Counted from the stretch's first letter, positions 32,576 to 49,031 are shown. The stretch: 64,000 nt of DNA from an uncultured Pseudomonadota bacterium (GCA_947307295.1 CAMZIQ010000001.1:40968-104967), one strand, 5' to 3'. Made by a program: numbers and translations. Notes: generated by a model not told the origin, from the letters alone.

Positions 32576-32639
32576 GGAAGCATCTTAAAATTTGCAAAAC
32601 TTCTTTTTTTTGATAATATGGCTACATAAAGGAATTTTT

Positions 32640-33398
32640 ATGTCAAAAGGTTTTAGAAAAGTTTGGAAAAATTTTTGGACCCCTATATTACACAATTCTG
32701 TTATCCAATGGACATTGGTTATAATACTGGCAGGATTAACATGGTTCATATTTTTAACTTCTAAACACCGTTTTGTAAACACAAAGTCTTTGAAAAAATA
32801 TCGTGAAACACCTGCGGTTTTTGTATTTTTTCACGGACGTTGTGCGATGCTGTCCCCTGTTATAAAATCAGCCAGGGTAAAATCTTATTGTGTCGCATCA
32901 CGTCACAAAGATGGTCGAATGATGGCACGTTTGCAAAGATTATTTGGTCTGCGGGCGATTTATGGTTCGACATCTGACGGTGCTGTTGCCGTTTTACGCG
33001 AAGGCGTCCGTATCATGCATGAAAAAAATATATCTGTGTGTGTCCCGGTCGATGGTCCATCTGGCCCATCTATGCACGTCCAAGATGGCGCATTATATTT
33101 CGCAAAAATGACAGGCGCACCAATTATACCTTGTTGTTTTTCTTGTTCGCGACCAATATATTTGGATAGATGGGATAAATTTATGATACCAAAATTATTT
33201 GGAACTATTTCTTGCCGTATCGGCGACCCTATATACATAGATTCTAAATTACGTGGCGAAGCATTCGAACAAAAACGTGCAGAGATAGAAGAAATCATGG
33301 TGAAACAATTACGCGAAATGGACGCTGAATTTAAACTGCCTGAAATTCCACGTGGTATCCATGCTACAGAATACAAAAAACATAACCGCAATAAATAA
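32640..33398 (+). CDS. hypothetical membrane-associated protein (possibly a DUF374/acyltransferase-like lipid biosynthesis accessory protein)
   Basis: N-terminal TM helix and a PVDGPSGPS motif. The start was chosen at MSKGFRK; low-confidence functional guess. Confidence 0.4.
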   Translation: MSKGFRKVWKNFWTPILHNSVIQWTLVIILAGLTWFIFLTSKHRFVNTKSLKKYRETPAVFVFFHGRCAMLSPVIKSARVKSYCVASRHKDGRMMARLQRLFGLRAIYGSTSDGAVAVLREGVRIMHEKNISVCVPVDGPSGPSMHVQDGALYFAKMTGAPIIPCCFSCSRPIYLDRWDKFMIPKLFGTISCRIGDPIYIDSKLRGEAFEQKRAEIEEIMVKQLREMDAEFKLPEIPRGIHATEYKKHNRNK

Positions 33399-37631: not shown

Positions 37632-37655
37632 TAAAAAATGTCCCGGTTGGGACAT
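37632..37655 (-). terminator. rho-independent terminator (hairpin atgtcccggttgggacat)
   Basis: Hairpin flanked by an A-run (plus), which is a T-run on the minus strand; downstream of 37661..38395. Confidence 0.55.
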
Positions 37656-37660
37656 TTTTC

Positions 37661-38395
37661 TTATTTGTTGTTTTTAAAATACAATTTTGCATATTCTGCC
37701 ATCACATTTATCATCATTCCTCGATAACCGAATTTATCCCAATTATGTGAAGCTGTTTCCAATTCCACCCTGAAATCTTCAAAAGAAGCCTGTTCCCAAT
37801 CTATAAAGAAAGTGATATCAAACGTTTTTGTATCCAACATAAAATTTTGCCAAATATCTTTTTGAAACCACCCATACAAAAAACCAGGTTTGTCTTCGGG
37901 GTCAGATTTCAAATCACGAAGTTCCACCGGATCACTTTTACCAATTACATACAAAAAATTAGCAATTTGTTTTGCGATATGTACCTGATGTTGCCCAATA
38001 ACAGATGGCTTCACATCTGTTAACAATGTTCCGTGTGCAAATTCATATTTGCGCACATAGATGTTTTTATAAGGGATTATTTTCATCAGCGGTATTTTAA
38101 TTGGCGAAATTCCATAGAAAGCATCAACTATGCGTTTTTCACGAATTGCGACATCTTTTCCATCTGTTAAAAGAGGAAACTTAAACACATGTTTATTATT
38201 TAAAATCACAACAAAATTTTTACAACCATATCCAACCATAGTTTTTATTTTGCGTTGCTTCATATTTTTAGCAAAATGACGGACAAAACGAATATATTCG
38301 CGAATCTGCGGATAACGAATCATCGTCCGCACTTTGTCACGCAAAGGTTTAGACCATATAAAACCACATACTATATTAGATATAAAATGTCGCAT
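37661..38395 (-). CDS. small atypical kinase-fold protein (Kdo/WaaP/choline-kinase-like?), 244 aa
   Basis: Choline-kinase-like FIDWEQASF motif and a degenerate catalytic-loop-like QKDIWQN; lysine in HVFKFP. Weak. Confidence 0.35.
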   Translation of the reverse strand: MRHFISNIVCGFIWSKPLRDKVRTMIRYPQIREYIRFVRHFAKNMKQRKIKTMVGYGCKNFVVILNNKHVFKFPLLTDGKDVAIREKRIVDAFYGISPIKIPLMKIIPYKNIYVRKYEFAHGTLLTDVKPSVIGQHQVHIAKQIANFLYVIGKSDPVELRDLKSDPEDKPGFLYGWFQKDIWQNFMLDTKTFDITFFIDWEQASFEDFRVELETASHNWDKFGYRGMMINVMAEYAKLYFKNNK

Positions 38396-38477
38396 TTTTT
38401 GCCTTTTATTCTGATGAATATAATCATAGGATAAAAAATACCCTTATGCAAACCAAAAAACTATTACGTTCTTTGCA

Positions 38478-40385
38478 CTATTTTAATTTATACTTAAAAA
38501 CACGAATTCCGAACAAATCTACCTTTAGATAATTGTTATTAGATACATAATGTCTGTAAATCGGTATACCAAATATAGTATATTTCAAATTCCGTTTAAT
38601 TTTTGTATTAGATAAATATTCACAACTAATAACTTTCTGACCGATATAAGATTTTATTTCATTATAGATATTGTTATATTTGGTTTCACAAGACTTATTT
38701 GTGCCGATACATTCAAGAACTTTGCACAAAGAATATGCATCATCCCAACGATATGGTTTTTCACGAAATTCTGGTGTCCCCAGTCCATATAAAAAACCCT
38801 TTGTTTTTATCAAAAAATCTAATTCTTTATAATTTGATTTACGGACAGCCAATTGGAAATCTATTAATTTCACACGACCACCAGACAAGACCAAATTTTT
38901 CAAAGTAATATCCCGATGAACAACATCAGAATCTTTTAAGCATTTAAATATCTGATAAATATCATCCAACCAAATATTCCTTTGTTTATCAGATAATTTG
39001 TGAGTTTTTAAAAACTCGTGTAAATTTTCACCTTCTGTCCATTCGTATGCAACAAAATGTTCGTTTGGGCAATCTCGATAATACATCGGCCTAATAAAAT
39101 GAACTTTATCCATATCGTACAGAATTTTTCCCATCTGATATTCATTTACATATATGCCAGGGATATCGCTGATTTTTATAAACATACGTGTTCCGTCTGT
39201 ATCGTATCCAGATGCAAAGACATTGTATGCCGCGTTCACAGAATCAGTATAAACTGTTTGAACATTTTTAAAACCAAAATTTGATTCAAGATATTTTTTA
39301 TATTCATTAAATTTTACAAGCTTTTCAGAATAATACACAGACGTATCATCCGGACGTGTGAAATTATAATTATTTTTATTCATAAAACCAGTTAACAATT
39401 GAAAATACAAATCAAACGGTGATGCGTACTTTTTTACATCATATTTCTTATCCAGTTTTAATTTTTTGAACAAATCCGCTATTTTATCATAATAATCAGA
39501 AGCAATTTTTTGCTTATTAATTAAACAATGATAAATCAACATATAAAAATAATTTTCTGTATTTGGGACGCGTATTACATTTCCATAATATTCAAATGTT
39601 TTGAATATATTGTTATCCCATTTTTTATCATGATAGTTATTATTTATATCCCATAAATCAATGTAAATACCCTTATCTTTTACTTTTATTAAATAGTGTG
39701 GTCTTGGTCTGTCTGTGAAATGCGCCTGCCCGCCAACAATCCAACGCGCAGCATCATAATTTTGAACCATAATATCAATATCACCATGTTCAGAACTATT
39801 CAAAGTTTGTTCCAGATTTTCAAAACCACGTAAAACTATATAATCTGTTGTTGCATTTAATGTATAAAAAAACTGTTTCAAACTGTCCCAACCATGTGCA
39901 CCGGTTATATCACGATGAACAGTTTTTACTTTGCCATCCCATTTTTTCGGTAAAGATTTTTTCAAATCATCATAATTTAACCCCAATAATAACGCAGAAT
40001 CATGATTCGTTTCATTAACAGAATTTGTAGTATGAATTTTGTGTCCACCGCGCGTCCATTGTCTGTATTTTTGTTTCAATGAAAATATATTTACGTTCAC
40101 ACGTTCATGCCCACGCGAAGTTTCAACCATTTCATATTTTGGTTTATTATCACGAACCACCAACAACAAAAACCCAGTTGTGCCACATTCCTTTTCTTTT
40201 TCAGAACGATTAGGCAAATTCACCCCGTAAAATCTGCTGAAATTATCAGACACACAATCACAAGACCAATGGACATCATACGCAGCCATTATATCCAAAT
40301 GAGATTTAACATCTTCTATAATCTCATTTTCTTTATATCTTGCATTTGCCCAAAGGACTATAAGGTGTATTTCTGGATTTTTCAT
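38478..40385 (-). CDS. two-domain protein: N-terminal LicD/pol-beta-like nucleotidyltransferase-fold region fused to a eukaryotic-like protein kinase domain (635 aa)
   Basis: HGDIDIMV (DxD) motif in the N-terminal half. HRDITLKNLV catalytic loop and DFQ (DFG-like) in the C-terminal half. Confidence 0.5.
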   Translation of the reverse strand: MKNPEIHLIVLWANARYKENEIIEDVKSHLDIMAAYDVHWSCDCVSDNFSRFYGVNLPNRSEKEKECGTTGFLLLVVRDNKPKYEMVETSRGHERVNVNIFSLKQKYRQWTRGGHKIHTTNSVNETNHDSALLLGLNYDDLKKSLPKKWDGKVKTVHRDITGAHGWDSLKQFFYTLNATTDYIVLRGFENLEQTLNSSEHGDIDIMVQNYDAARWIVGGQAHFTDRPRPHYLIKVKDKGIYIDLWDINNNYHDKKWDNNIFKTFEYYGNVIRVPNTENYFYMLIYHCLINKQKIASDYYDKIADLFKKLKLDKKYDVKKYASPFDLYFQLLTGFMNKNNYNFTRPDDTSVYYSEKLVKFNEYKKYLESNFGFKNVQTVYTDSVNAAYNVFASGYDTDGTRMFIKISDIPGIYVNEYQMGKILYDMDKVHFIRPMYYRDCPNEHFVAYEWTEGENLHEFLKTHKLSDKQRNIWLDDIYQIFKCLKDSDVVHRDITLKNLVLSGGRVKLIDFQLAVRKSNYKELDFLIKTKGFLYGLGTPEFREKPYRWDDAYSLCKVLECIGTNKSCETKYNNIYNEIKSYIGQKVISCEYLSNTKIKRNLKYTIFGIPIYRHYVSNNNYLKVDLFGIRVFKYKLK

Positions 40386-40411
40386 ATTATTTTTCCATCA
40401 CAAAAGTTATA

Positions 40412-41269
40412 TTATTTCCAAAACATTTTGCATATAGGTATGCACTCGAATAACACAATCCAATTATTTTTAATCTTTACCAATGGGATAAATCCAAACA
40501 AACGCAATCTAAATTGAGTTCCTGGAACCATCATTTTTGATGCCACACGACGATATTCAGGATATTTAGATGATATTTCCATACGAATATTTGCAGCAGC
40601 CTCTTCACGAGCATCATTCATACGCTTAGACGTATTATTTTCAAACCATCTGTAATGAATTAAAATTTCTTGAAAATTATAAAAATGAGTCACTTCCATC
40701 AAACGTGTCCACAAACGATAATCTTCAGCCGGGGTATAAAATTCTTCATATTCAATATTATTATCAACCAAAACAGATTTACGTATCATTGATGCAGAAT
40801 GTATCACGAAACAATTTTCAGTCAGATGAACACGAATCTGCGAATCCATTTCAGGAGTTTTACATAAATCATCATAATTATCCCCAAAATAATGAGCCCA
40901 ACCAGACACAACACCAATATGTGGATGAGAATCCAGATATGCAACTTCTTTTTCCAAACGTTCTGGCACAGATACATCATCATGGTCGAATATAGCCAAA
41001 TATTCCCCCGCAGCCATTTTCACCAACCTATTCCGCGAAGGCGTAATCCCCATATTTTTTGTATTTTTTATATATTTTACACGTTTATCTTTTTTAGCAT
41101 AATCTTTGACAATCTTTTCAATTTCTTTATTATCAGGGCTGTCATTTAAAATCAAAAATTCAAAATCTGTAAAAGTCTGATTTAAAATAGATTCAATCAT
41201 TTCACGCAAATGCGTTGGATTAGTATTATAAATCGGCGTTAAAACAGATACTTTTGGTGCTTTTGGCAT
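40412..41269 (-). CDS. family 2 glycosyltransferase
   Basis: VSVLTPIYN, ILNDSPDN and AIFDHDDV (DxD) GT2-A motifs. Confidence 0.85.
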   Translation of the reverse strand: MPKAPKVSVLTPIYNTNPTHLREMIESILNQTFTDFEFLILNDSPDNKEIEKIVKDYAKKDKRVKYIKNTKNMGITPSRNRLVKMAAGEYLAIFDHDDVSVPERLEKEVAYLDSHPHIGVVSGWAHYFGDNYDDLCKTPEMDSQIRVHLTENCFVIHSASMIRKSVLVDNNIEYEEFYTPAEDYRLWTRLMEVTHFYNFQEILIHYRWFENNTSKRMNDAREEAAANIRMEISSKYPEYRRVASKMMVPGTQFRLRLFGFIPLVKIKNNWIVLFECIPICKMFWK

Positions 41270-41384
41270 TGGCTTTCCTTTGTTATATTTATAAAAAATA
41301 GGATAATATTATTGTGCCATAAAAATAGATAATAGCAAGATGTTTATTTTATAAATGATGAAAAAAACACAGTTGCGCCAAGCA

Positions 41385-41430
41385 CAATTCACGAACCAAC
41401 ATAATCAAAATCAGACAAGAGATTGATGAA
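41385..41430. repeat. island repeat part 2, copy A (caattcacgaaccaacataatcaaaatcagacaagagattgatgaa)
   Basis: 46-nt element, 70–85% identical to copies at 41894, 42557 and 43336. Confidence 0.7.
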
Positions 41431-41453
41431 TTTGTTTTAAAATATTATCAGCG

Positions 41454-41798
41454 TTATTTTTTACGCCCTCTACCCCCGTCTAATAAAACGATGTGTGTTT
41501 CAATCATCCCGCTTTTCATACGTCTACGTGCTACCGTAAAACCTCGTTCATAAGATCTTTGAAAATTTTTCAATATGTTTTCAATGTTACCAATTTCAAT
41601 TATACTGCGAACCGCGTTGTTATATCCTGGTTTCTCGGTTGGCCCAATAGAAAGAACTTTTTCCACATGCCACTTTACAGCACTAATTTCCTGATCAGTC
41701 AATGTGCGTCCCAAACCTTCATTTTTTAAGCTTGTCAGCGATAAATTTTGTTTTTTCATTGAATCATTTGCTTTTTGCAATTCTTTATTGGCATCCAT
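41454..41798 (-). CDS. hypothetical protein (114 aa)
   Basis: ORF flanked by island repeats A and B; no recognisable motif. Confidence 0.45.
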   Translation of the reverse strand: MDANKELQKANDSMKKQNLSLTSLKNEGLGRTLTDQEISAVKWHVEKVLSIGPTEKPGYNNAVRSIIEIGNIENILKNFQRSYERGFTVARRRMKSGMIETHIVLLDGGRGRKK

Positions 41799-41893
41799 AA
41801 TTTATCCTTTTTTATATTATTACACCCCTATTATATAACACAAAAAAACATATTGTCAATATTTATTTAAAAAATTCACTTTCGCCACCTATG

Positions 41894-41939
41894 CAATTCA
41901 CGAGCCGATATAATCAAAATCGGAAAAGAGATTGATGAA
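41894..41939. repeat. island repeat part 2, copy B
   Basis: caattcacgagccgatataatcaaaatcggaaaagagattgatgaa. Confidence 0.7.
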
Positions 41940-41975
41940 ATGAAAGACACATTAAACCTGCCAAATTTAATTTGA

Positions 41976-42491
41976 TTACGGAATAAATGTTTCAATATAT
42001 TTCCAACCGTTTTCATCTAAAACGAAATGAAAACATTGGGCATTTTGAATACCGTCAACTTTATGTCCGCACGCCCAACATAGTGCACGTGTTACGCCAC
42101 CATGAGAAGCAATCGCAATATTTTCATGTTTATCTGTCTTAACAATTTGTTCTAGGTAATTTTTTATAAGTTTGAAATTATCGTTTATTTGCTTTTTCTT
42201 TTCTTCGTCTTCAACATCCCAAAACCAAAATATCGCTTCTTTGAGGGCGTCATTGGTTACAATTTTGATATCTGTACCATTTGTGATTGCAATTTTTGCG
42301 GTATCTATTGCACGTCTGTAAGGACTTGAATAAACAATCTGAATATTTTTATCTTTAAAAAATTCGTGCAACTTGGTTGCCTGTATAACACCTAAATCTG
42401 TCAACCAAGCATCAATACCTGTGCCATACCGAACACCAACTTCGTTTTCATTTGTTTGTCCATGCCTGAAAAAATAAAAATGCCTTTCCAT
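41976..42491 (-). CDS. histidine phosphatase family protein (PGAM/SixA-like)
   Basis: RHGQT catalytic motif at the N-terminus and …ASHGG…; 171 aa. Confidence 0.8.
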   Translation of the reverse strand: MERHFYFFRHGQTNENEVGVRYGTGIDAWLTDLGVIQATKLHEFFKDKNIQIVYSSPYRRAIDTAKIAITNGTDIKIVTNDALKEAIFWFWDVEDEEKKKQINDNFKLIKNYLEQIVKTDKHENIAIASHGGVTRALCWACGHKVDGIQNAQCFHFVLDENGWKYIETFIP

Positions 42492-42523
42492 GAAATAACC
42501 TTTTCAAAAATTATATCACAACA

Positions 42524-42600
42524 GTTCGAATATGACAAATTTTCGATATTTTACATGATTCACAAACCACCATAATCAAAATCAAACAAGAAATAATAGA
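42524..42600. repeat. island repeat copy C (truncated part 1 fused to part 2)
   Basis: gttcgaatatgacaaattttcgatatttt followed by gattcacaaaccaccataatcaaaatcaaacaagaaataataga. Confidence 0.65.
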
Positions 42601-42614
42601 TTTCAAAAACAAAT

Positions 42615-42623
42615 TTATGGTAT
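42615..42623 (+). promoter_or_regulatory. extended -10 promoter (TGgTATAAT) for the NlpC/P60-like gene
   Basis: tggtataat 11 nt upstream of the ATG at 42634. Confidence 0.4.
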
Positions 42624-42633
42624 AATATAGAAT

Positions 42634-43206
42634 ATGCAAACAAATATAGATTTCTTTAACAATTTGTTCCGACAGGACTTCGTTTCTGAATACAATCATT
42701 CTAATTATATTGATAAATTTGGTGGTAAAAATTTCTTTCATATGGATTGCAGCGGTTTCGTTTATTGGTGCTTGGCACAAATGGGTTATAAACGGGCGTT
42801 GGTTGAATTGAAAAATTTTTTAAAAGAAAACGATTTTATAAAAATAAATAGATTTTTCTGTAAAGACTTTGCATTTATTCATGAACATAAAAATAAATTA
42901 ACCTATTGGGATTTCATGGACAGACCTATTTCTGGTTCTATTATGGTTGTTGTATTTCCTGATGGTAATGGTCATTGTATGTTTATTGATAACATCATCG
43001 ATAATAATAAAACTAAACTATGTTTGTGGGTGATTGATTCTACCCAATACCCACATAAAAGCGACACCAGAACAGATGAAGAAACAGGCATAGGTATTGG
43101 CGAAATTGAAATAACAACTAAAAACGGCGATTGGTTCTATGATTCTGGCAACAAATCATTACCAATAAGAAAAGCAGAAATATATTTTATATCACCCAAA
43201 AAATAA
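42634..43206 (+). CDS. NlpC/P60-like (papain-fold) cysteine peptidase/amidase-like protein
   Basis: DCSGFVYWC catalytic-Cys motif with a downstream His (GNGHCMFID); 190 aa. Confidence 0.5.
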   Translation: MQTNIDFFNNLFRQDFVSEYNHSNYIDKFGGKNFFHMDCSGFVYWCLAQMGYKRALVELKNFLKENDFIKINRFFCKDFAFIHEHKNKLTYWDFMDRPISGSIMVVVFPDGNGHCMFIDNIIDNNKTKLCLWVIDSTQYPHKSDTRTDEETGIGIGEIEITTKNGDWFYDSGNKSLPIRKAEIYFISPKK

Positions 43207-43209
43207 AAA

Positions 43210-43382
43210 GTTTGAAAATGACAATTTTTTGATATTTTTCCAAAACAAAACTTTCGAACTCGGTGAAAGTATTAGCAAACAAATAAAAAACCGCCCTGAA
43301 ACGAACGATTGTCTATCTTGGTTGTGCTATCTGTGCAATTTGCGAGCCTATATCATCAAAACTGGACAAGAGATTAATGAAG
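43210..43382. repeat. island composite repeat copy D (part 1 palindrome, degenerate tRNA-3'-end-like segment, part 2)
   Basis: gtttgaaaatgacaattttttgatatttttccaaaacaaaactttcgaactcggtgaaag … tcttggttgtgctatctgtg … caatttgcgagcctatatcatcaaaactggacaagagattaatgaa. Confidence 0.7.
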
Positions 43383-43427
43383 CGAAAGACAAACTAGGAC
43401 TCTGATTAAATAATATTTGTTTAGTAA

Positions 43428-44015
43428 TTATTTACCCTTGTATTCACTTACCAGTTTAGAAAAAATCAAATGATCTGTCCATTTACCGTTGGATAGTTTC
43501 GCATATTCTCTTAAACGGCCATCCAAATGATACCCACTGCTTAAAATAGATTTTAGTGACCTTTCATTGTTTTCCATACATTGACGACTCATACGGTGTA
43601 TTTTTAAATCGTTGAATGTGATTTTTTCCAAAAGATTATGGATTTCATGATTAAAACCATGACCCCATGCTGATTTAACAAACCAAACATTACCTGGGTT
43701 AACAGTATCATTTTCTTTATTATACGAAACGCCATGAAAGCCGATCAATTTACCACCATGAAACACATACCATAAAACCCCATTGAATTTAAATGCTTCT
43801 GCGTAATTTTTCATTGTTTCAAATGTTTCATCCAATGATTCTGGCAAAGGTTTATCATATTTTGGTGAATAATGTATAAAAGCAAAATCTTCTGGATTTT
43901 CATTTTTAATTGCTTCCCACACCAGTTCAGCATTTTGCATTGTTGGTTCAAGAATACGAAGTTCCAATCTTTCTGTTTTGTGATTTTTTTTGAAGAATTT
44001 AAAAAACTTTTCCAT
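43428..44015 (-). CDS. GNAT family N-acetyltransferase (RimJ/RimL-like)
   Basis: GNAT fold pattern (…VLWYVFHGGKLIGFHGV…NPGNVWFV…); 195 aa. Confidence 0.75.
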   Translation of the reverse strand: MEKFFKFFKKNHKTERLELRILEPTMQNAELVWEAIKNENPEDFAFIHYSPKYDKPLPESLDETFETMKNYAEAFKFNGVLWYVFHGGKLIGFHGVSYNKENDTVNPGNVWFVKSAWGHGFNHEIHNLLEKITFNDLKIHRMSRQCMENNERSLKSILSSGYHLDGRLREYAKLSNGKWTDHLIFSKLVSEYKGK

Positions 44016-44030
44016 ATTATCACCTTTTTA

Positions 44031-44801
44031 TTATTTTTCCGCTTCTGCTATTTTTTTACGTAATTCAGGTTCGTTTTGCTGAACAAAATTATATGACTTT
44101 TCCATAAAATCGTATATGTCTTTACGTTCCAGATATAACTTTTTCATAGTATCAAACAGCAATTTTCCATTTATTTCCATCTCATAAAAATATGAATATG
44201 CTATGTGTTTTGGTTGCTTAACCAAATTTCCAATTTCGGAATTACGAATTATGGTTTCAACAACTATTTCCGATAAAACCCATTTCAAATGTGGGGTATC
44301 ATATTCGTCAGGATTGTCTTTGAAGTATTCGTGCCAAATATAAAACCAAACAAAATGTGTTATTTCATGCAATGCAGCAAATATCGCGTATTCTGGCTCG
44401 AACTTATAGAAAACATCAAAAGTGTATTCTTGTACATTTCGGGGACAAACAGGGTCTAATCCAACGAAACCTACCATATCATTCAAAATTTTTGTACAAT
44501 CATACCCAAAAGTTGATGAATACGCTTGATTTAACTTTTTTGCTACTGGTATCCAATTCGTTTGAAACATTTTTATTGAATTCTGTATATCGTCAGAGTG
44601 CAAAACCGATAATTTTTCCATTTCTTTTCGTATATATTTCAAACGTTCAGATTCTGGTAATTTTCTTGCATATTCGTAATTTAAAGACGGAAACACTTCA
44701 AAAAGCCGTTTAGACCACCAAGCTGGTTTATCATCTTGCTGTAAAAACAAAATAAAATCCAAATCCTCTTCAAAATCTTTTTGTTTCCAAGTTAGTTGCA
44801 T
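44031..44801 (-). CDS. hypothetical protein with an HExxH motif (putative zinc-dependent hydrolase), 256 aa
   Basis: ALHEITHFVWF contains HEITH; 16 nt upstream of the GNAT gene (probable operon). Confidence 0.45.
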   Translation of the reverse strand: MQLTWKQKDFEEDLDFILFLQQDDKPAWWSKRLFEVFPSLNYEYARKLPESERLKYIRKEMEKLSVLHSDDIQNSIKMFQTNWIPVAKKLNQAYSSTFGYDCTKILNDMVGFVGLDPVCPRNVQEYTFDVFYKFEPEYAIFAALHEITHFVWFYIWHEYFKDNPDEYDTPHLKWVLSEIVVETIIRNSEIGNLVKQPKHIAYSYFYEMEINGKLLFDTMKKLYLERKDIYDFMEKSYNFVQQNEPELRKKIAEAEK

Positions 44802-44845
44802 TGTACCAATCCTTTAATAGCTGTAGTACGATTGTATCACAAAAA

Positions 44846-45010
44846 GTTCGAAAATGCCAAAAAATTGCGATTTTTCAAAATTAAACTTTCGAACTCGATG
44901 AAAAACTTGCGATTCCAACAAAAACCGCACTTATGGACGGTTATGTAAACTATGGTTGGGGTACACGGTGCCTTGATACACAATAATAAAAATCAAAAAA
45001 ATCTCCAGTT
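44846..45010. repeat. island composite repeat copy E (part 1 palindrome, exact 16-nt tRNA-Gln 3'-end repeat, degenerate part 2)
   Basis: gttcgaaaatgccaaaaaattgcgatttttcaaaattaaactttcgaactcgatgaaaaac … tggttggggtacacgg … cacaataataaaaatcaaa. Confidence 0.7.
44953..44968. repeat. exact 16-bp direct repeat of the tRNA-Gln 3' end (tggttggggtacacgg); att-like
   Basis: Identical to 45195-45210, which is the reverse complement of the tRNA 3' terminus including CCA. Confidence 0.8.
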
Positions 45011-45156
45011 GTCGATTTTTTAATATTTTTCTAATTGTCTATCTGCGTACTCGCTCGCCCCCATTACAATGGTGGCTGCGCGGCAATCGTAACGATTTTG
45101 TTTTACAAAATCTACTGCTTGTCGAACCTGCGATTCTCGTCTCGTTATCACCAAAA

Positions 45157-45186
45157 CCAAAAATTAAAACCCCCACAAGGGGTGTT
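45157..45186 (-). terminator. hairpin plus T-run immediately downstream of the tRNA-Gln 3' end
   Basis: On the minus strand: aaacaccccttgtggggg followed by ttttaatttt. Confidence 0.5.
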
Positions 45187-45194
45187 TAAATTCT

Positions 45195-45268
45195 TGGTTG
45201 GGGTACACGGACTCGAACCGCGATATACAGAGTCAGAGTCTGCTGTTCTACCATTAAACTATACCCCA
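45195..45268 (-). tRNA. tRNA-Gln (anticodon CUG)
   Basis: Hand-folded cloverleaf: 7-bp acceptor with a U1:A72 pair typical of bacterial tRNA-Gln (UGGGGUA…UACCCCA), D-arm GUUU/GAAC, anticodon loop CUCUGAC, T-arm CGCGG-UUCGAGU-CCGUG, discriminator A, encoded CCA. Confidence 0.85.
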
Positions 45269-45304: not shown

Positions 45305-46030
45305 TCAATCAAATATTTTCAAATCTTTAAAGTCATTATGGCTGGCTTTTGGAATTAATTTTATATCTGTTTCATCTGCCCACGTTTTTGCTAATTCATA
45401 TGGTACAACATCATCACGTTCACCAACAAAATGGGTTTGTGCAACGGCTGGCAAAGTTTCCATATTCAAAGATTCATCTAGCGGTTCATCACCAAAATAT
45501 TCTGTCCATTTTTTATGATTTAAAACCCCAGCAATCGTTATCCATTTTTCAAAATTCATTTTTGGATTTTGTTTTATAATCAGACCAGAAACCATCGCAC
45601 CACCAGAATATCCAATAATCGTTATTTTTTTATTTTTCGCGATTTGCTTAATCACCCTGCTTTCTGCATCTATGACTTTCTGTGAAAATCGCCCATCTGT
45701 CCAATCTGATTCGTTACAATTTTTATCCATTATAAATTGGCAAGGTCTTGCAACATAAACAACGTTTTCAAAATTATCAGCCACAGCTAAATCTCGCACA
45801 AAAGTTCCACGTGGTGTTGGATTACTTGTCGGTTGACCGTATGAATCAAAAGCATATCCATCGCCTTCGATATAAACATGAATTTGATTATTTTCAGGAT
45901 TATTTATTTTCTGCCAAGTTGCGATTTTATAAGAATCTGTTTGCACTGGTACATATTGAAAGTCATCTGGCGCAACCCAGTTTGCGCCTGCACATCCAGA
46001 CAAAAAAAGAATCAAAAACAATTTTTTCAT
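45305..46030 (-). CDS. lipoprotein with an alpha/beta-hydrolase (esterase/lipase-like) fold
   Basis: Lipobox LFLILFLSGC and GxSxG nucleophile motif IIGYSGGAMV. Start at MKKLF. Confidence 0.6.
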   Translation of the reverse strand: MKKLFLILFLSGCAGANWVAPDDFQYVPVQTDSYKIATWQKINNPENNQIHVYIEGDGYAFDSYGQPTSNPTPRGTFVRDLAVADNFENVVYVARPCQFIMDKNCNESDWTDGRFSQKVIDAESRVIKQIAKNKKITIIGYSGGAMVSGLIIKQNPKMNFEKWITIAGVLNHKKWTEYFGDEPLDESLNMETLPAVAQTHFVGERDDVVPYELAKTWADETDIKLIPKASHNDFKDLKIFD

Positions 46031-46113
46031 ATACCTAATATTTACATTTTTACAAAAATCAGTCAACAATGATGGAAAACTAAAATTTTTGTGTTATAAT
46101 CGCACCCGTTGAG

Positions 46114-46145: not shown

Positions 46146-47384
46146 ATGAAAATAAAACCATTTGCAGGTGTAAGACCACCAAAAGATTTAGCAAAAGAAG
46201 TCGCATCACGTCCTTATGACGTTTTGAATTCTGTTGAAGCAAAGACTGAAGCTGGTGAAAAATCTTTATTGCACATTATTAAACCAGAAATTGATTTTGA
46301 CCCAATTGCCGATGAACACGAACAAAAAACTTATGACAAAGCTGTTGAAAATTTCAAAAAATGGCAAGAACGTGGCTGGCTGACCCAAGACGACAAAGAA
46401 ATGTATTACATCTATGCACAAACTATGGATGGTCGCACTCAATATGGTTTGGTAGCCGCAGCAAATGTTGATGATTACATGACCGGCAAAATTAAAAAAC
46501 ACGAATTAACCAGAAAAGAAAAAGAAGACGATCGTATGATTCACGTTCGTATTCAAAATGCTAATTTGGAACCTGTGTTCTTTGCTTATCCTGATGTTGC
46601 TGAAATGAATGATTTGGTTTCTGATTGGATTGCAAAACACGAACCAGAATATGACTTTGTTGCAGAAGATGGATTTGGTCATACTTTCTGGAAAATTGAT
46701 GACGATGCAACAAATGCTCGCATCACAGAAATTTTTGCAAAAGTTCCTGCGTTTTATGTTGCAGACGGTCACCACAGAACCGCAGCTGCTGCACGTGTTG
46801 GTGCTGAAAAACGTGAACAAAACCCAAATCACACAGGCAACGAAGAATATAACTATTTCTTGGCTGTAATTTTCCCAGAAAGCCAATTACACGTTATCGA
46901 CTATAACCGCGTAGTCAAAGATTTAAACGGATTGTCTGCTGATGAATTTATCGAAAAATTGCGTGAATCTTTTGAAGTAAAAGAAATGGGTTCAGAAATT
47001 TACCATCCAAATAAACTACACAACTTTTCTATGTATCTGGATGGCAAATGGTATTCTTTGACAGCCAAAGCTGGGACTTATAATGACAACGATCCAATCG
47101 GCGTTTTAGACGTGACAGTATTATCCAATTTGGTGTTTGACAAGATATTGAATTTGGGTGATTTGCGCACATCAAAACGCATTGACTTTGTCGGTGGAAT
47201 TCGCGGTCTTGGCGAATTGAAAAAACGCGTAGATTCTGGTGAAATGGTTGTTGCGTTTGCTTTGTACCCTGTGACAATGCGTCAAATTATTGACATTGCA
47301 GACACAGGCAACATTATGCCTCCAAAGACAACTTGGTTTGAACCAAAATTACGTAGTGGTTTGGTAATTCACAAATTATCATAA
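46146..47384 (+). CDS. DUF1015 family protein (412 aa)
   Basis: N-terminal MKIKPFAGVRPPKDLAKEVASRPYDVLNSVEA matches the DUF1015 signature as recalled; typical length. Confidence 0.65.
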   Translation: MKIKPFAGVRPPKDLAKEVASRPYDVLNSVEAKTEAGEKSLLHIIKPEIDFDPIADEHEQKTYDKAVENFKKWQERGWLTQDDKEMYYIYAQTMDGRTQYGLVAAANVDDYMTGKIKKHELTRKEKEDDRMIHVRIQNANLEPVFFAYPDVAEMNDLVSDWIAKHEPEYDFVAEDGFGHTFWKIDDDATNARITEIFAKVPAFYVADGHHRTAAAARVGAEKREQNPNHTGNEEYNYFLAVIFPESQLHVIDYNRVVKDLNGLSADEFIEKLRESFEVKEMGSEIYHPNKLHNFSMYLDGKWYSLTAKAGTYNDNDPIGVLDVTVLSNLVFDKILNLGDLRTSKRIDFVGGIRGLGELKKRVDSGEMVVAFALYPVTMRQIIDIADTGNIMPPKTTWFEPKLRSGLVIHKLS

Positions 47385-47471: not shown

Positions 47472-49031
47472 TTACCATAATCCAACTTTACAAATAGAAT
47501 CGAATATATATTTTTTTTCTATTGTTTCATTTGTGTTCTTGCACGTGACAATATCATCAGTCCCTGGTATTCTATTACATGTACCTGTGCATTTAAATGT
47601 GGTATTAAGGTAATAATCAACCCATCTTTCACCCATTAAACCATTCAAATCTTGCACCAGCTGTTTTGCCGCCATTGCAAAAGCATCGCTTTCTTTTTCT
47701 GTTTTTGTCTCTTCAAACTTATTTGAAGTTTGTTTCGCCCAATTTGTTATTTTGGTAGCAAAACTCTTCATTTCAGCATTTTGCTTTTGTATATTGTCAT
47801 AATTTGTTTTTAGTTTTGATTTTAATTCATTACATTGACTTTCAGCTATCGCGCTTCTTTGAGATTCACTAACATAATAATTATGATCGTTAATCTTGGC
47901 AAGATATGCTTGATACCCATCTGTATCTTTATCAATAACTTTATAACTGGTAAATGTTTCTATCTTTGAATACCCTGTATTGCATTCTACTTTTTTTTGT
48001 AAACTATTGATATTAAATTCCTGATTCCAGAAATTTACCCTTTGCCCCTTTTCCATCAAATTAGCATAATGTCCACCAGGTTCTTTCCATTCGTTTTTTG
48101 AATTATATGGCGTTCCATTTGGATTAGGCATACACCAATTAGTTGTGGGAAATTTTTTATCTCCACCCATTTTGGTTATACTAAGAGCCTCCCCTAATTC
48201 GGTAAATAGTTTACGCCAATCGGTATTATTCCGTAAAGGCAAACGACAATTTATTTCTACAATATCTGCCCTGGGACTTATACTAAAAGGCGGGTGTTTT
48301 GATACCAAAGAAATACCATGTTGTGCACATCCAGTCAAAACTACATTTTTCCCTTTTTCTTCATATACTTTATATGCATCACAGATAAAATCTTGTTCCG
48401 CATCAATATATTTTCGTATAACCCTACAATTATAATATCTATTTTCAGATGGACATTCTGGATGCTTACTTTCTGGCTCACCTTCTCCTACAAGCCATTT
48501 TCCTTTGCCCTCACAGTTCCATCCGTTTACCTCAATAAAACATTTCCCCCGTTTATAATTACCATTAGTGTCTATTAACATTTCATAAGTTCCCGCATGA
48601 TTCACACATTTTTTACACCTTTCCAATTCTGTTGGATTATCGGCATACTGTGCATCACAATCACTAACTTCTATTGCTAAAGTCGCAGGTATTTCACAAT
48701 TTACTCTTGTCCTTGTAGTCCCACCACTAAACATACTGTTATGCGAATCAATAGCGGTTTCAATCCAGTTGTTGCACCATTCTGAATACATACCAACAGA
48801 ACACACATTGTTTATACCAGTCACAGAAGCGTTAAAATTGTTTTCTTTCATATAATTCAAAATATTTAATGTCGTTTCGGCACCTGGTCCTTTACTGAAT
48901 TTTTCATTTTCAGCAGTCTGAACAATTGCGTCCACAGACCATTCACGCACTTTGGTCAATTCATCATTTTCTATTGCCAGAACATCAAAGGCGAACATCA
49001 ACATATAAAATACTGCGAATATCTTTTTCAT
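47472..49031 (-). CDS. secreted Cys-rich hypothetical protein (519 aa)
   Basis: Signal peptide MKKIFAVFYMLMFAFDVLA; more than 25 Cys. Confidence 0.55.
   Translation of the reverse strand: MKKIFAVFYMLMFAFDVLAIENDELTKVREWSVDAIVQTAENEKFSKGPGAETTLNILNYMKENNFNASVTGINNVCSVGMYSEWCNNWIETAIDSHNSMFSGGTTRTRVNCEIPATLAIEVSDCDAQYADNPTELERCKKCVNHAGTYEMLIDTNGNYKRGKCFIEVNGWNCEGKGKWLVGEGEPESKHPECPSENRYYNCRVIRKYIDAEQDFICDAYKVYEEKGKNVVLTGCAQHGISLVSKHPPFSISPRADIVEINCRLPLRNNTDWRKLFTELGEALSITKMGGDKKFPTTNWCMPNPNGTPYNSKNEWKEPGGHYANLMEKGQRVNFWNQEFNINSLQKKVECNTGYSKIETFTSYKVIDKDTDGYQAYLAKINDHNYYVSESQRSAIAESQCNELKSKLKTNYDNIQKQNAEMKSFATKITNWAKQTSNKFEETKTEKESDAFAMAAKQLVQDLNGLMGERWVDYYLNTTFKCTGTCNRIPGTDDIVTCKNTNETIEKKYIFDSICKVGLW

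Follow-up and report, generated by a model that had tools for sequence, protein, structure and literature searches.

A three-domain protein with predicted nucleoside diphosphate kinase-like, nucleotidyltransferase-like and protein kinase-like domains beside a GT2 glycosyltransferase: a candidate glycan-decoration pair in an uncultured Pseudomonadota bacterium

O-antigens, capsules and flagellin glycans can carry non-sugar caps and side groups, which govern chain length, export checkpoints, antigenicity, and recognition by phages and the immune system. To our knowledge few enzyme types install such groups, among them WbdD, the ORF6 (open reading frame 6) protein of Klebsiella O7 and LicD. WbdD of Escherichia coli O9a and Klebsiella O3 is both a kinase and a methyltransferase and terminates the O-antigen chain (PMC3482155), and Klebsiella O7 ORF6 unites a methyltransferase, a kinase and two glycosyltransferase family 2 (GT2) modules in a single chain (PMC11231755). 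In the pseudomycoidin lasso-peptide cluster, PsmN is an uncharacterised ANT(2'')-like nucleotidyltransferase (NTase) whose DxD motif is required for adding a hexose onto a phosphate installed by a kinase (PMC6993621). A stretch of 64,000 nucleotides (nt) from an uncultured Pseudomonadota bacterium (hereafter the window, to whose positions all coordinates refer) carries a gene for a 635-amino acid (aa) protein of three predicted domains, placed 26 nt downstream of a GT2 gene in a strain-specific insert. By analogy, the best reading of this protein follows the logic of WbdD and O7 ORF6, that of modular glycan-modifying or glycan-terminating enzymes. A modular enzyme of glycan decoration or termination beside a glycosyltransferase is thus already known, and what appears to be new is a core of two domains that is paired with a kinase or a methyltransferase.

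A preliminary description of this DNA had placed three genes at 37661-41269 and joined them into one surface-glycan decoration module. All three open reading frames (ORFs) were recovered there, on the minus strand, and the motifs that had been quoted are present: HGDIDIM (residues 200-206), HRDITLKN (490-497) and DFQ (509-511) in the 635-aa protein, and IDWEQASF (198-205) in a 244-aa protein. Neither ORFs nor motifs are due to chance, since the 635-aa protein has 86 homologues, the 244-aa protein more than 200, and the GT2 matches PF00535 (E=4.4e-30). The GT2 assignment, for which that profile search had been proposed as a check, is upheld by this match and by the DxD-type motif DHDD (95-98), which accompanies DSPD (43-46); in NCBIfam the GT2 has generic matches only (EpsE, 118 bits against a cut-off of 450). 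The GT2 gene, the 635-aa gene and the parts of its product are as follows.

41269-40412, minus strand: GT2 glycosyltransferase, 285 aa (ORF; PF00535)
40385-38478, minus strand: protein of 635 aa and three domains, ending in a basic/aromatic tail (ORF; homologue alignments)
39930-40385, minus strand: domain A, residues 1-152, predicted nucleoside diphosphate kinase (NDK)-like fold (AlphaFold2 model, Foldseek, invariant residues)
39231-39929, minus strand: domain B, residues 153-385, predicted DNA polymerase beta (pol-beta)-superfamily NTase-like fold (AlphaFold2 model, Foldseek, invariant residues)
38616-39230, minus strand: domain C, residues 386-590, putative eukaryotic protein kinase (ePK)-like core (Pfam Pkinase, family profile against PDB)
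38481-38615, minus strand: C-terminal basic/aromatic tail, YTIFGIPIYRH…VDLFGIRVFKYKLK (sequence only)

The 86 homologues of the 635-aa protein were retrieved from a search of 5.8 billion proteins, with E-values from 0 to 1e-40 and identities down to 31%. Most cover 87-100% of the query, and 13 are shorter or differently fused (27-69%). Catalytic residues are invariant in up to 85 sequences over this same range of identity. Pfam and NCBIfam returned nothing for residues 1-400 and a partial kinase domain (about 420-531) alone. The homologue alignment shows two separately conserved N-terminal blocks, domains A and B, which form a constant and rigid bi-domain unit referred to below as the N-dom. 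Neither the N-dom core nor its pairing with a kinase or a methyltransferase matches any Pfam or NCBIfam model, and in the literature searched neither this domain combination nor an NDK-like glycan enzyme is described.

Residues 1-152 are predicted to adopt the NDK fold. In the AlphaFold2 model of residues 1-385 (predicted local distance difference test score, pLDDT, 95.2; predicted template modelling score, pTM, 0.91), the order of strands and helices over residues 1-135 is that of NDK. The best 50 Foldseek matches in the PDB are nucleoside diphosphate kinases without exception (50/50; probability 0.97-1.0, about 130-170 columns), with target TM-scores mostly of 0.5-0.6 (range 0.35-0.61); the top match, 5x00_A, has E=2.9e-4, probability 1.0 and a target TM-score of 0.57. 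Residues W40, Y53, G54, G68, N97, R108 and H118 are invariant in the family and E125 and D129 nearly so, the signature being GGHKIH(118)TTNSxxETNHD. DSSP places His118 on a short strand (117-119) and Asp129 in the next helix (123-134). A weak hhalign comparison (P=0.016, probability 2.8%) with four NDK sequences sets H118 on the catalytic His117 and D129 on the His-polarising Glu. The modelled likeness to NDK (PF00334) lies in the fold and in the order of its elements, and perhaps also in an invariant His that closes beta4 ahead of a helix with an acidic residue; unlike NDK, domain A has no significant profile match, lacks Lys12 and is welded to an NTase domain. The PF00334 profile did not match the query, one of 27 family members reaching E=0.03, and the domain A family profile found no match among PDB sequences, in Pfam or in NCBIfam. 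The domain could act as a phosphohistidine relay, in nucleoside triphosphate (NTP) supply or in nucleotide binding.

For residues 153-385 a pol-beta-type NTase fold is predicted. In a separate AlphaFold2 model of this part (pLDDT 90.2), the best Foldseek matches in the PDB are almost all NTases, at E-values that are modest from the best one upward (5uvd, E=1e-2); they include the mimivirus poly(A) synthase 4wse, ANT(2'')-Ia (5cfu/4wqk), JHP933, CCA-adding enzymes and MenT/TglT. Residues Y182, R186, D202 and D204 (both in HGDIDIM), D243 and H286 are invariant, and D202/D204/D243 make up the classic three-carboxylate metal site. The DxD region, earlier described as LicD/pol-beta-like, is thus borne out as pol-beta. 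Membership in LicD is not: PF04991 matched neither the 635-aa protein (E<=0.1) nor 31 domain B members (E<=1), three of which matched PF14907 (NTP_transf_5) weakly instead, and no structure of LicD, FKRP or fukutin is among the best 50 Foldseek matches. The domain B family profile found a single, insignificant match to dihydrofolate reductase among PDB sequences (E=0.22). Structure prediction, which had been suggested as a check, accordingly gave an N-terminal half that is in part what was expected (pol-beta NTase-like) and in part not (NDK-like), with no LicD structure among those best 50 matches. The protein had been described as a LicD-like/kinase fusion; its kinase and its DxD-bearing NTase-fold part stand, while the two-part LicD fusion gives way to three domains, the first of which, NDK-like, had been overlooked.

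As an analogy, PsmN appears to be the best precedent for the NTase-like domain. The PsmK/PsmN pair likewise joins a kinase to an NTase-fold enzyme, and the likeness is one of structure, with the top neighbours 5cfs and 4xje shared by domain B; it differs in its peptide Ser substrate, its HprK-type kinase, its division into two proteins and the lack of an NDK-like domain.

Domain C is, judged by its residues, a genuine ePK-like kinase core. It matches Pfam Pkinase (PF00069) with 35.9 bits against a gathering cut-off of 31.7 (profile positions 52-163 of 263), and the kinase family profile matches StkP and PAK1 in the PDB, the latter with E=3e-16 over a stretch that opens at the beta3 Lys and closes shortly beyond DFG. 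The catalytic set is in place: K404 (beta3 Lys), E415 (alphaC Glu), HRD at 490-492 with D492, N497, and DFQ at 509-511 with D509. Throughout the family H, R, D and N are invariant, and the Lys and the DFG Asp occur in at least 90% of sequences. The kinase domain proposed earlier extends beyond the two short motifs on which it had been based. The PDB alignments stop about 10 residues past DFG, and the region after DFQ is divergent; WDDAYS at 547-552, of the form WDDxYS, is possibly the counterpart of subdomain IX.

With PAK1 and StkP as its best PDB matches, the kinase core would suit a Ser/Thr protein kinase for signalling or anti-phage defence, whose N-terminal domains would serve as sensor or effector and whose place beside the GT2 would be a coincidence. 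Matches from PADLOC (PD-T4-6, Stk2, mad6), a weak NCBIfam match to MADS6 and the location of the gene in a strain-specific insert fit such a role. These matches, however, span only the generic core (about 436-520) and lie far below the family cut-offs, and the N-dom has no match to a defence family. In addition, tblastn of the N-dom against plasmid and phage collections found no homologue, and the family shows recurring fusions to GT2, GT1 and methyltransferase domains and an embedding in polysaccharide clusters. We regard this role as very improbable, and anti-phage defence was rejected because the PADLOC matches are confined to the generic kinase core.

The relatives of the 635-aa protein sit in, or are fused to, machinery of surface-sugar assembly across many phyla, and it is for this reason that the protein most likely decorates a surface glycan. 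When 1.84 billion cluster representatives were scanned in full by HMMER, the profile of the NDK-like domain matched 1,196 clusters (about 1,200, defined at 50% identity) at E<=1e-3, of which 921 reached E<=1e-10. Among species genomes of GTDB the hosts are rumen and gut Alphaproteobacteria, Candidatus Spyradenecus, Akkermansia, Chthoniobacteraceae, Verrucomicrobiia, Gastranaerophilales, Bacteroidales, Pelagibacteraceae, Gemmatimonas and the cultured Caldimonas manganoxidans ATCC BAA-369, and the family also occurs in a Clostridiaceae genome. Among 222 members retrieved, 133 have the N-dom with the kinase, 61 the N-dom alone (some may be fragments) and about 19 the N-dom with an S-adenosylmethionine (SAM) methyltransferase; kinase and methyltransferase share one position and do not occur together. 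An apparent pair of the two in one member (P0075) was rejected, its "kinase" match being an artefact of a hidden Markov model built with P0075 itself.

Larger fusions attach the N-dom directly to glycosyltransferases. The N-dom is followed by a methyltransferase, a GT2 and a GT1-like domain in a 1839-aa protein of Caldimonas, by a methyltransferase and a GT2 in P0270 and P0325, and by the kinase and a GT2 in P0319; a 2171-aa protein of Gemmatimonas consists of GT4, N-dom, kinase, GT2 and GT1. Tetratricopeptide repeats (TPR) are found in the orders N-dom, kinase, TPR and TPR, methyltransferase, N-dom.

These architectures bear on two further explanations. The preliminary description had drawn on the Lic1 locus; the kinase would then make a phospho-alcohol, as LicA does, and the NTase domain, in the manner of LicD, would move it (phosphocholine, for example) from a cytidine diphosphate donor to a glycan. 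LicD and fukutin belong to the superfamily of the pol-beta NTase fold. The resemblance to LicD/fukutin/FKRP and LicA consists in a pol-beta NTase-fold domain with DxD, a glycan-decoration setting, into which the contexts of the family fit, and a kinase-fold partner. Set against it are the failure of the LicD profile, the NTP_transf_5 matches and the Foldseek results given above, the absence of LicB- or LicC-like Pfam matches among the insert ORFs, and a kinase of the ePK type rather than of the choline-kinase or APH (aminoglycoside phosphotransferase) type. A methyltransferase, moreover, can fill the kinase slot, which does not suit a kinase that makes a donor, and the extra, NDK-like domain is left without a role. 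The analogy to Lic1 thus loses its ground in the lack of LicB/LicC-like genes nearby and in the exchange of the kinase, and we consider a Lic1-like scheme unlikely.

Salvage of nucleotide sugars to feed the GT2 has the appeal that each of the three domains uses nucleotides: the kinase would yield a sugar-1-phosphate, the NDK-like domain would regenerate NTP, and the NTase would produce the nucleoside diphosphate (NDP)-sugar. The 26-nt distance between the 635-aa gene and the GT2, the fusion of other members to glycosyltransferases and the invariant His118 at the presumed NDK catalytic position speak for it. The known sugar nucleotidyltransferases have a fold different from pol-beta, and we know of no NTase of the pol-beta fold that makes NDP-sugars, so that salvage needs a fold without such a precedent; the swap of kinase for methyltransferase does not fit it either, and members consisting of the N-dom only exist. 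Salvage, too, is in our view an unlikely account.

Decoration of a glycan, by comparison, agrees with the loci of the homologues as well as with their fusions, as the preliminary description had proposed for the window. Family members are housed in Wzx/Wzy/Wzz clusters in four loci (L004, L005, L017, L018). In the Clostridiaceae genome a split version comprises a GT2, the N-dom, a separate kinase and Wzx among Rml, DegT and PglD genes, and in a capsule-like cluster (L034) the N-dom is accompanied by a methyltransferase, a GT4, a KpsC/S-like gene and NeuA/NeuB. A GT2 gene directly adjoins the family gene in Gastranaerophilales and Bacteroidales (L020, L028), and no orthologue of the GT2 of the window stands beside a homologue of the 635-aa protein in the loci fetched. 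Other members lie among GT2-TPR and GT41-TPR genes (L006/L007), near RmlD (L015), upstream of a BspA-LRR surface protein (L013) or beside an exporter pair of the ABC-2 type (L026, the sole locus with one). In a stretch of Caldimonas (L025:1930-11478, the cultured strain ATCC BAA-369) the 1839-aa gene is divergent beside two flagellin genes and fliD, and the whole resembles an island for flagellin glycosylation.

The reading that we hold as probable, if only by a little, is that the 635-aa protein and the GT2 act in the cytoplasm as a pair, acquired horizontally, for glycan decoration, that is, for glycan modification in general; any specific chemistry is put forward with much less confidence. 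The two genes are 26 nt apart and are probably co-transcribed. A glycan-modifying enzyme working with the GT2 is suggested by the three folds, the intact catalytic residues, the alternation of kinase and methyltransferase, and the recurrent links to glycosyltransferases and to export and polymerisation, taken together. By analogy with WbdD and Klebsiella O7 ORF6, the GT2 would first extend a lipid-linked surface glycan or a surface-protein glycan by a sugar; the kinase domain would then phosphorylate a hydroxyl of this sugar; and the N-dom, using a nucleotide substrate, would supply this phosphate-linked substituent, or build on it, in the form of a cap or a side group. Four elements of this scheme we infer: a sugar and not a protein as substrate, the sequence of the steps, what the N-dom does chemically, and which glycan is the target (lipopolysaccharide/capsule or a surface-protein glycan). 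A more specific proposal, offered tentatively and rated well below an even chance, is that the N-dom is a new capping or side-group module in which an NDK-type phosphohistidine site coupled to a pol-beta site installs a nucleotide-derived or phosphodiester-linked group, the exchangeable kinase or methyltransferase completing the modification.

Several observations weigh against a glycan-decoration pair. The NDK and NTase assignments are fold similarities at weak E-values (3e-4 and 1e-2) joined to an hhalign result of low confidence, and the position of NDK Lys12 is taken by a tryptophan (W12), so that this lysine is not conserved. The kinase core is most like protein Ser/Thr kinases and may have a protein substrate. 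The members of the family are biochemically uncharacterised; about one third of the homologue loci (L001/L012, L002/3/14/16, L013, L021) have no glycan genes within 3 ORFs; and in the window no Wzx/Wzy or ABC (ATP-binding cassette) exporter adjoins the cassette, the GT2 being the sole glycan gene nearby.

With WbdD, the 635-aa protein and its family share an ePK-like kinase module in a setting of glycan assembly that works alongside glycosyltransferases, the occurrence of kinase and SAM-methyltransferase modules within one protein family, and a possible membrane-binding C-terminal segment. The combination that characterises WbdD-type systems, a kinase and/or a methyltransferase with glycan-polymerising glycosyltransferases, is seen here in the adjacency of the GT2 in the window and in the fusions and contexts of the homologues. 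WbdD differs in lacking NDK-like and NTase-like domains; its kinase and methyltransferase are partners, whereas they are alternatives in the N-dom family; and the contexts of the N-dom are mostly Wzx/Wzy clusters or flagellin genes, whereas terminators of the WbdD type are marked by a coiled-coil ruler and by O-antigen loci that depend on an ABC transporter. WbdD is not among the best 60 PDB sequence matches listed for the kinase profile. Klebsiella O7 ORF6 and O12 WbbB (PMC11231755) resemble the Caldimonas 1839-aa and Gemmatimonas 2171-aa fusions in being single polypeptides with a methyltransferase or a kinase plus GT2 or GT1; both are without the N-dom, the kinase of O7 ORF6 is an atypical AmiN-like domain, and the modules of the window are divided between the GT2 and 635-aa genes.

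If the N-dom is such a capping or side-group module, it would define a widespread class of glycan-modifying enzymes, with about 1,200 clusters at 50% identity and no characterised member. Its members are numerous, distributed over many phyla and frequent among bacteria of the gut and rumen (Alphaproteobacteria, Akkermansia, Bacteroidales, Gastranaerophilales), and an NDK-like domain in a glycan enzyme would be unexpected and would point to unexplored phosphate chemistry. The question is directly testable, because the cultured C. manganoxidans ATCC BAA-369 carries a fused version beside flagellin genes.

Basic/aromatic stretches recur at the ends of the proteins of this locus. The GT2 C-terminus (40412-40500) bears a tail, RLRLFGFIPLVKIK, that resembles the tail of the 635-aa protein, a similar stretch, CGFIWSKPLRDKVR, lies at the N-terminus of the 244-aa kinase (38300-38395), and homologues of the 635-aa protein terminate in FIPVKSWRKKFR. 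These stretches, present in all three proteins, may be a common membrane-association motif.

The surroundings of the pair are made up of the following features.

38468-45194, no strand assigned: strain-specific insert, 6.7 kb (blastn against the closest relative, L030)
45195-45268, minus strand: tRNA-Gln(CTG); the insert has its proximal border at the 3' end of this gene
38395-37661, minus strand: 244-aa minimal APH-like kinase (ORF; profile match)
37584-33661, minus strand: Pmp-repeat autotransporter, 1307 aa, downstream of the 244-aa gene, given as context only (PF03797, E=6e-33, and Chlam_PMP)

In the blastn comparison with L030, homology ends exactly at 45195, the 3' end of the tRNA-Gln, and returns at 38467, ten bases beyond the stop codon of the 635-aa gene. 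The GT2 and 635-aa genes occupy the far end of the insert, whose cargo otherwise consists of a 256-aa unknown, a GNAT protein, an NlpC/P60-like protein, a His-phosphatase and a 114-aa unknown. The same interval holds a radical SAM protein and RgpF in one relative and two unknowns in another, and the G+C content of the insert is 0.30-0.33 against 0.35-0.40 in the flanks. The earlier suggestion of horizontal acquisition at a tRNA-Gln island is thus supported by the comparison of relatives, with its strain-specific insert and the other cargo found at this place. A classical island with integrase and attachment sites was rejected: Pfam showed no integrase domain among the insert ORFs, and no second copy of the 25-mer at the tRNA 3' end was found with up to 3 mismatches. 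Among homologues of the 635-aa protein, the closest (70% identity) stands in a wholly different genomic context, and a search of the insert with Rfam returned the tRNA alone.

The 244-aa gene lies 82 nt downstream of the 635-aa gene, outside the insert. The product had been called kinase-like, which is sound: its family profile matches APH(2'')-Ia in the PDB (E=8.6e-6), and G55 (glycine loop), K72, E86, D180, N184 and D199 are invariant, the query itself giving no match to Pfam APH. Its inclusion in one module with the GT2 and 635-aa genes has to be given up. Eight related loci (L008-L011, L030-L033) keep the gene without a GT2 or 635-aa gene, while it is absent from every one of the 29 loci retrieved around 635-aa protein homologues (0/29; L001-L007, L012-L029). 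In relatives at 85%, 75% and 61% identity the small kinase stands between the tRNA-Gln and the autotransporter. The autotransporter follows its 3' end in L008-L011, L030 and L031 and is missing in L032 (L032:8806-10653; 80% identity), which retains the small kinase with the tRNA-Gln inverted relative to it. The 244-aa gene is a conserved backbone gene of the alphaproteobacterial lineage and lies outside the cassette. In L010 (7001-8448) there are two tandem paralogues of 248 and 234 aa, 44% identical. A 246-aa neighbour in L002 and a 339-aa neighbour in L001 were ruled out as kin of the 244-aa kinase on comparison.

The position of the autotransporter raises a last explanation, by analogy with the glycosylation of autotransporters and flagellin, in which the cassette would modify a surface protein, here the downstream Pmp-type autotransporter, and not lipopolysaccharide or capsule. 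The GT2, 635-aa, 244-aa and autotransporter genes do lie on one strand, and elsewhere in the family the flagellin genes and fliD beside the Caldimonas fusion, the GT2-TPR and GT41-TPR neighbours of L006/L007, the BspA-LRR protein downstream in L013 and the TPR fusions are in line with such a target. The autotransporter and the small kinase, however, exist without the cassette in relatives, a hairpin parts the 244-aa gene from the autotransporter, and many homologues belong to classical Wzx/Wzy clusters. A surface-protein target of this kind seems to us rather unlikely, though slightly less so than Lic1-like transfer or salvage. The hairpin (37634-37659), in the 76-nt gap between the two genes, has an 11-bp stem (AAAAATGTCCC-GGTT-GGGACATTTTT), reads the same on both strands and is likely a terminator or attenuator.

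Within the insert a 46-nt intergenic element occurs four times (41385-41430, 41894-41939, 42556-42601 and 43336-43381), with 76-89% identity to the reference copy, the core CAATTCACGAACCnAnATAATCAAAATCnGACAAGAGATTGATGAA and no Rfam match. Three copies precede minus-strand genes (GT2, 114-aa ORF and His-phosphatase) by 65-160 nt, and related stretches are found in variable regions of L008 and L032; the element could be a shared promoter or operator, or a cassette-boundary element. A perfect sigma-70 consensus (TTGACA, 18 nt, TATAAT) is present at 41830-41859 on the minus strand, upstream of the 114-aa ORF, and terminator-like hairpins at 41450-41467 and 41373-41387 surround the end of this ORF, one over its last codons and one downstream, before the GT2. 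Phase variation of the lic1 type was rejected, as simple-sequence repeats and homopolymer tracts are absent across 37.5-41.5 kb.

Beyond the variable region, a 519-aa ORF, rich in cysteine and opening with what appears to be a signal peptide, is found at 47472-49031 on the minus strand and has no Pfam match. The backbone flanking the region comprises DUF374 and DUF1015 proteins (32592-33398 and 46146-47384), an alpha/beta-hydrolase-like lipoprotein (45305-46069) and GroES/GroEL, in an order common to all relatives examined.

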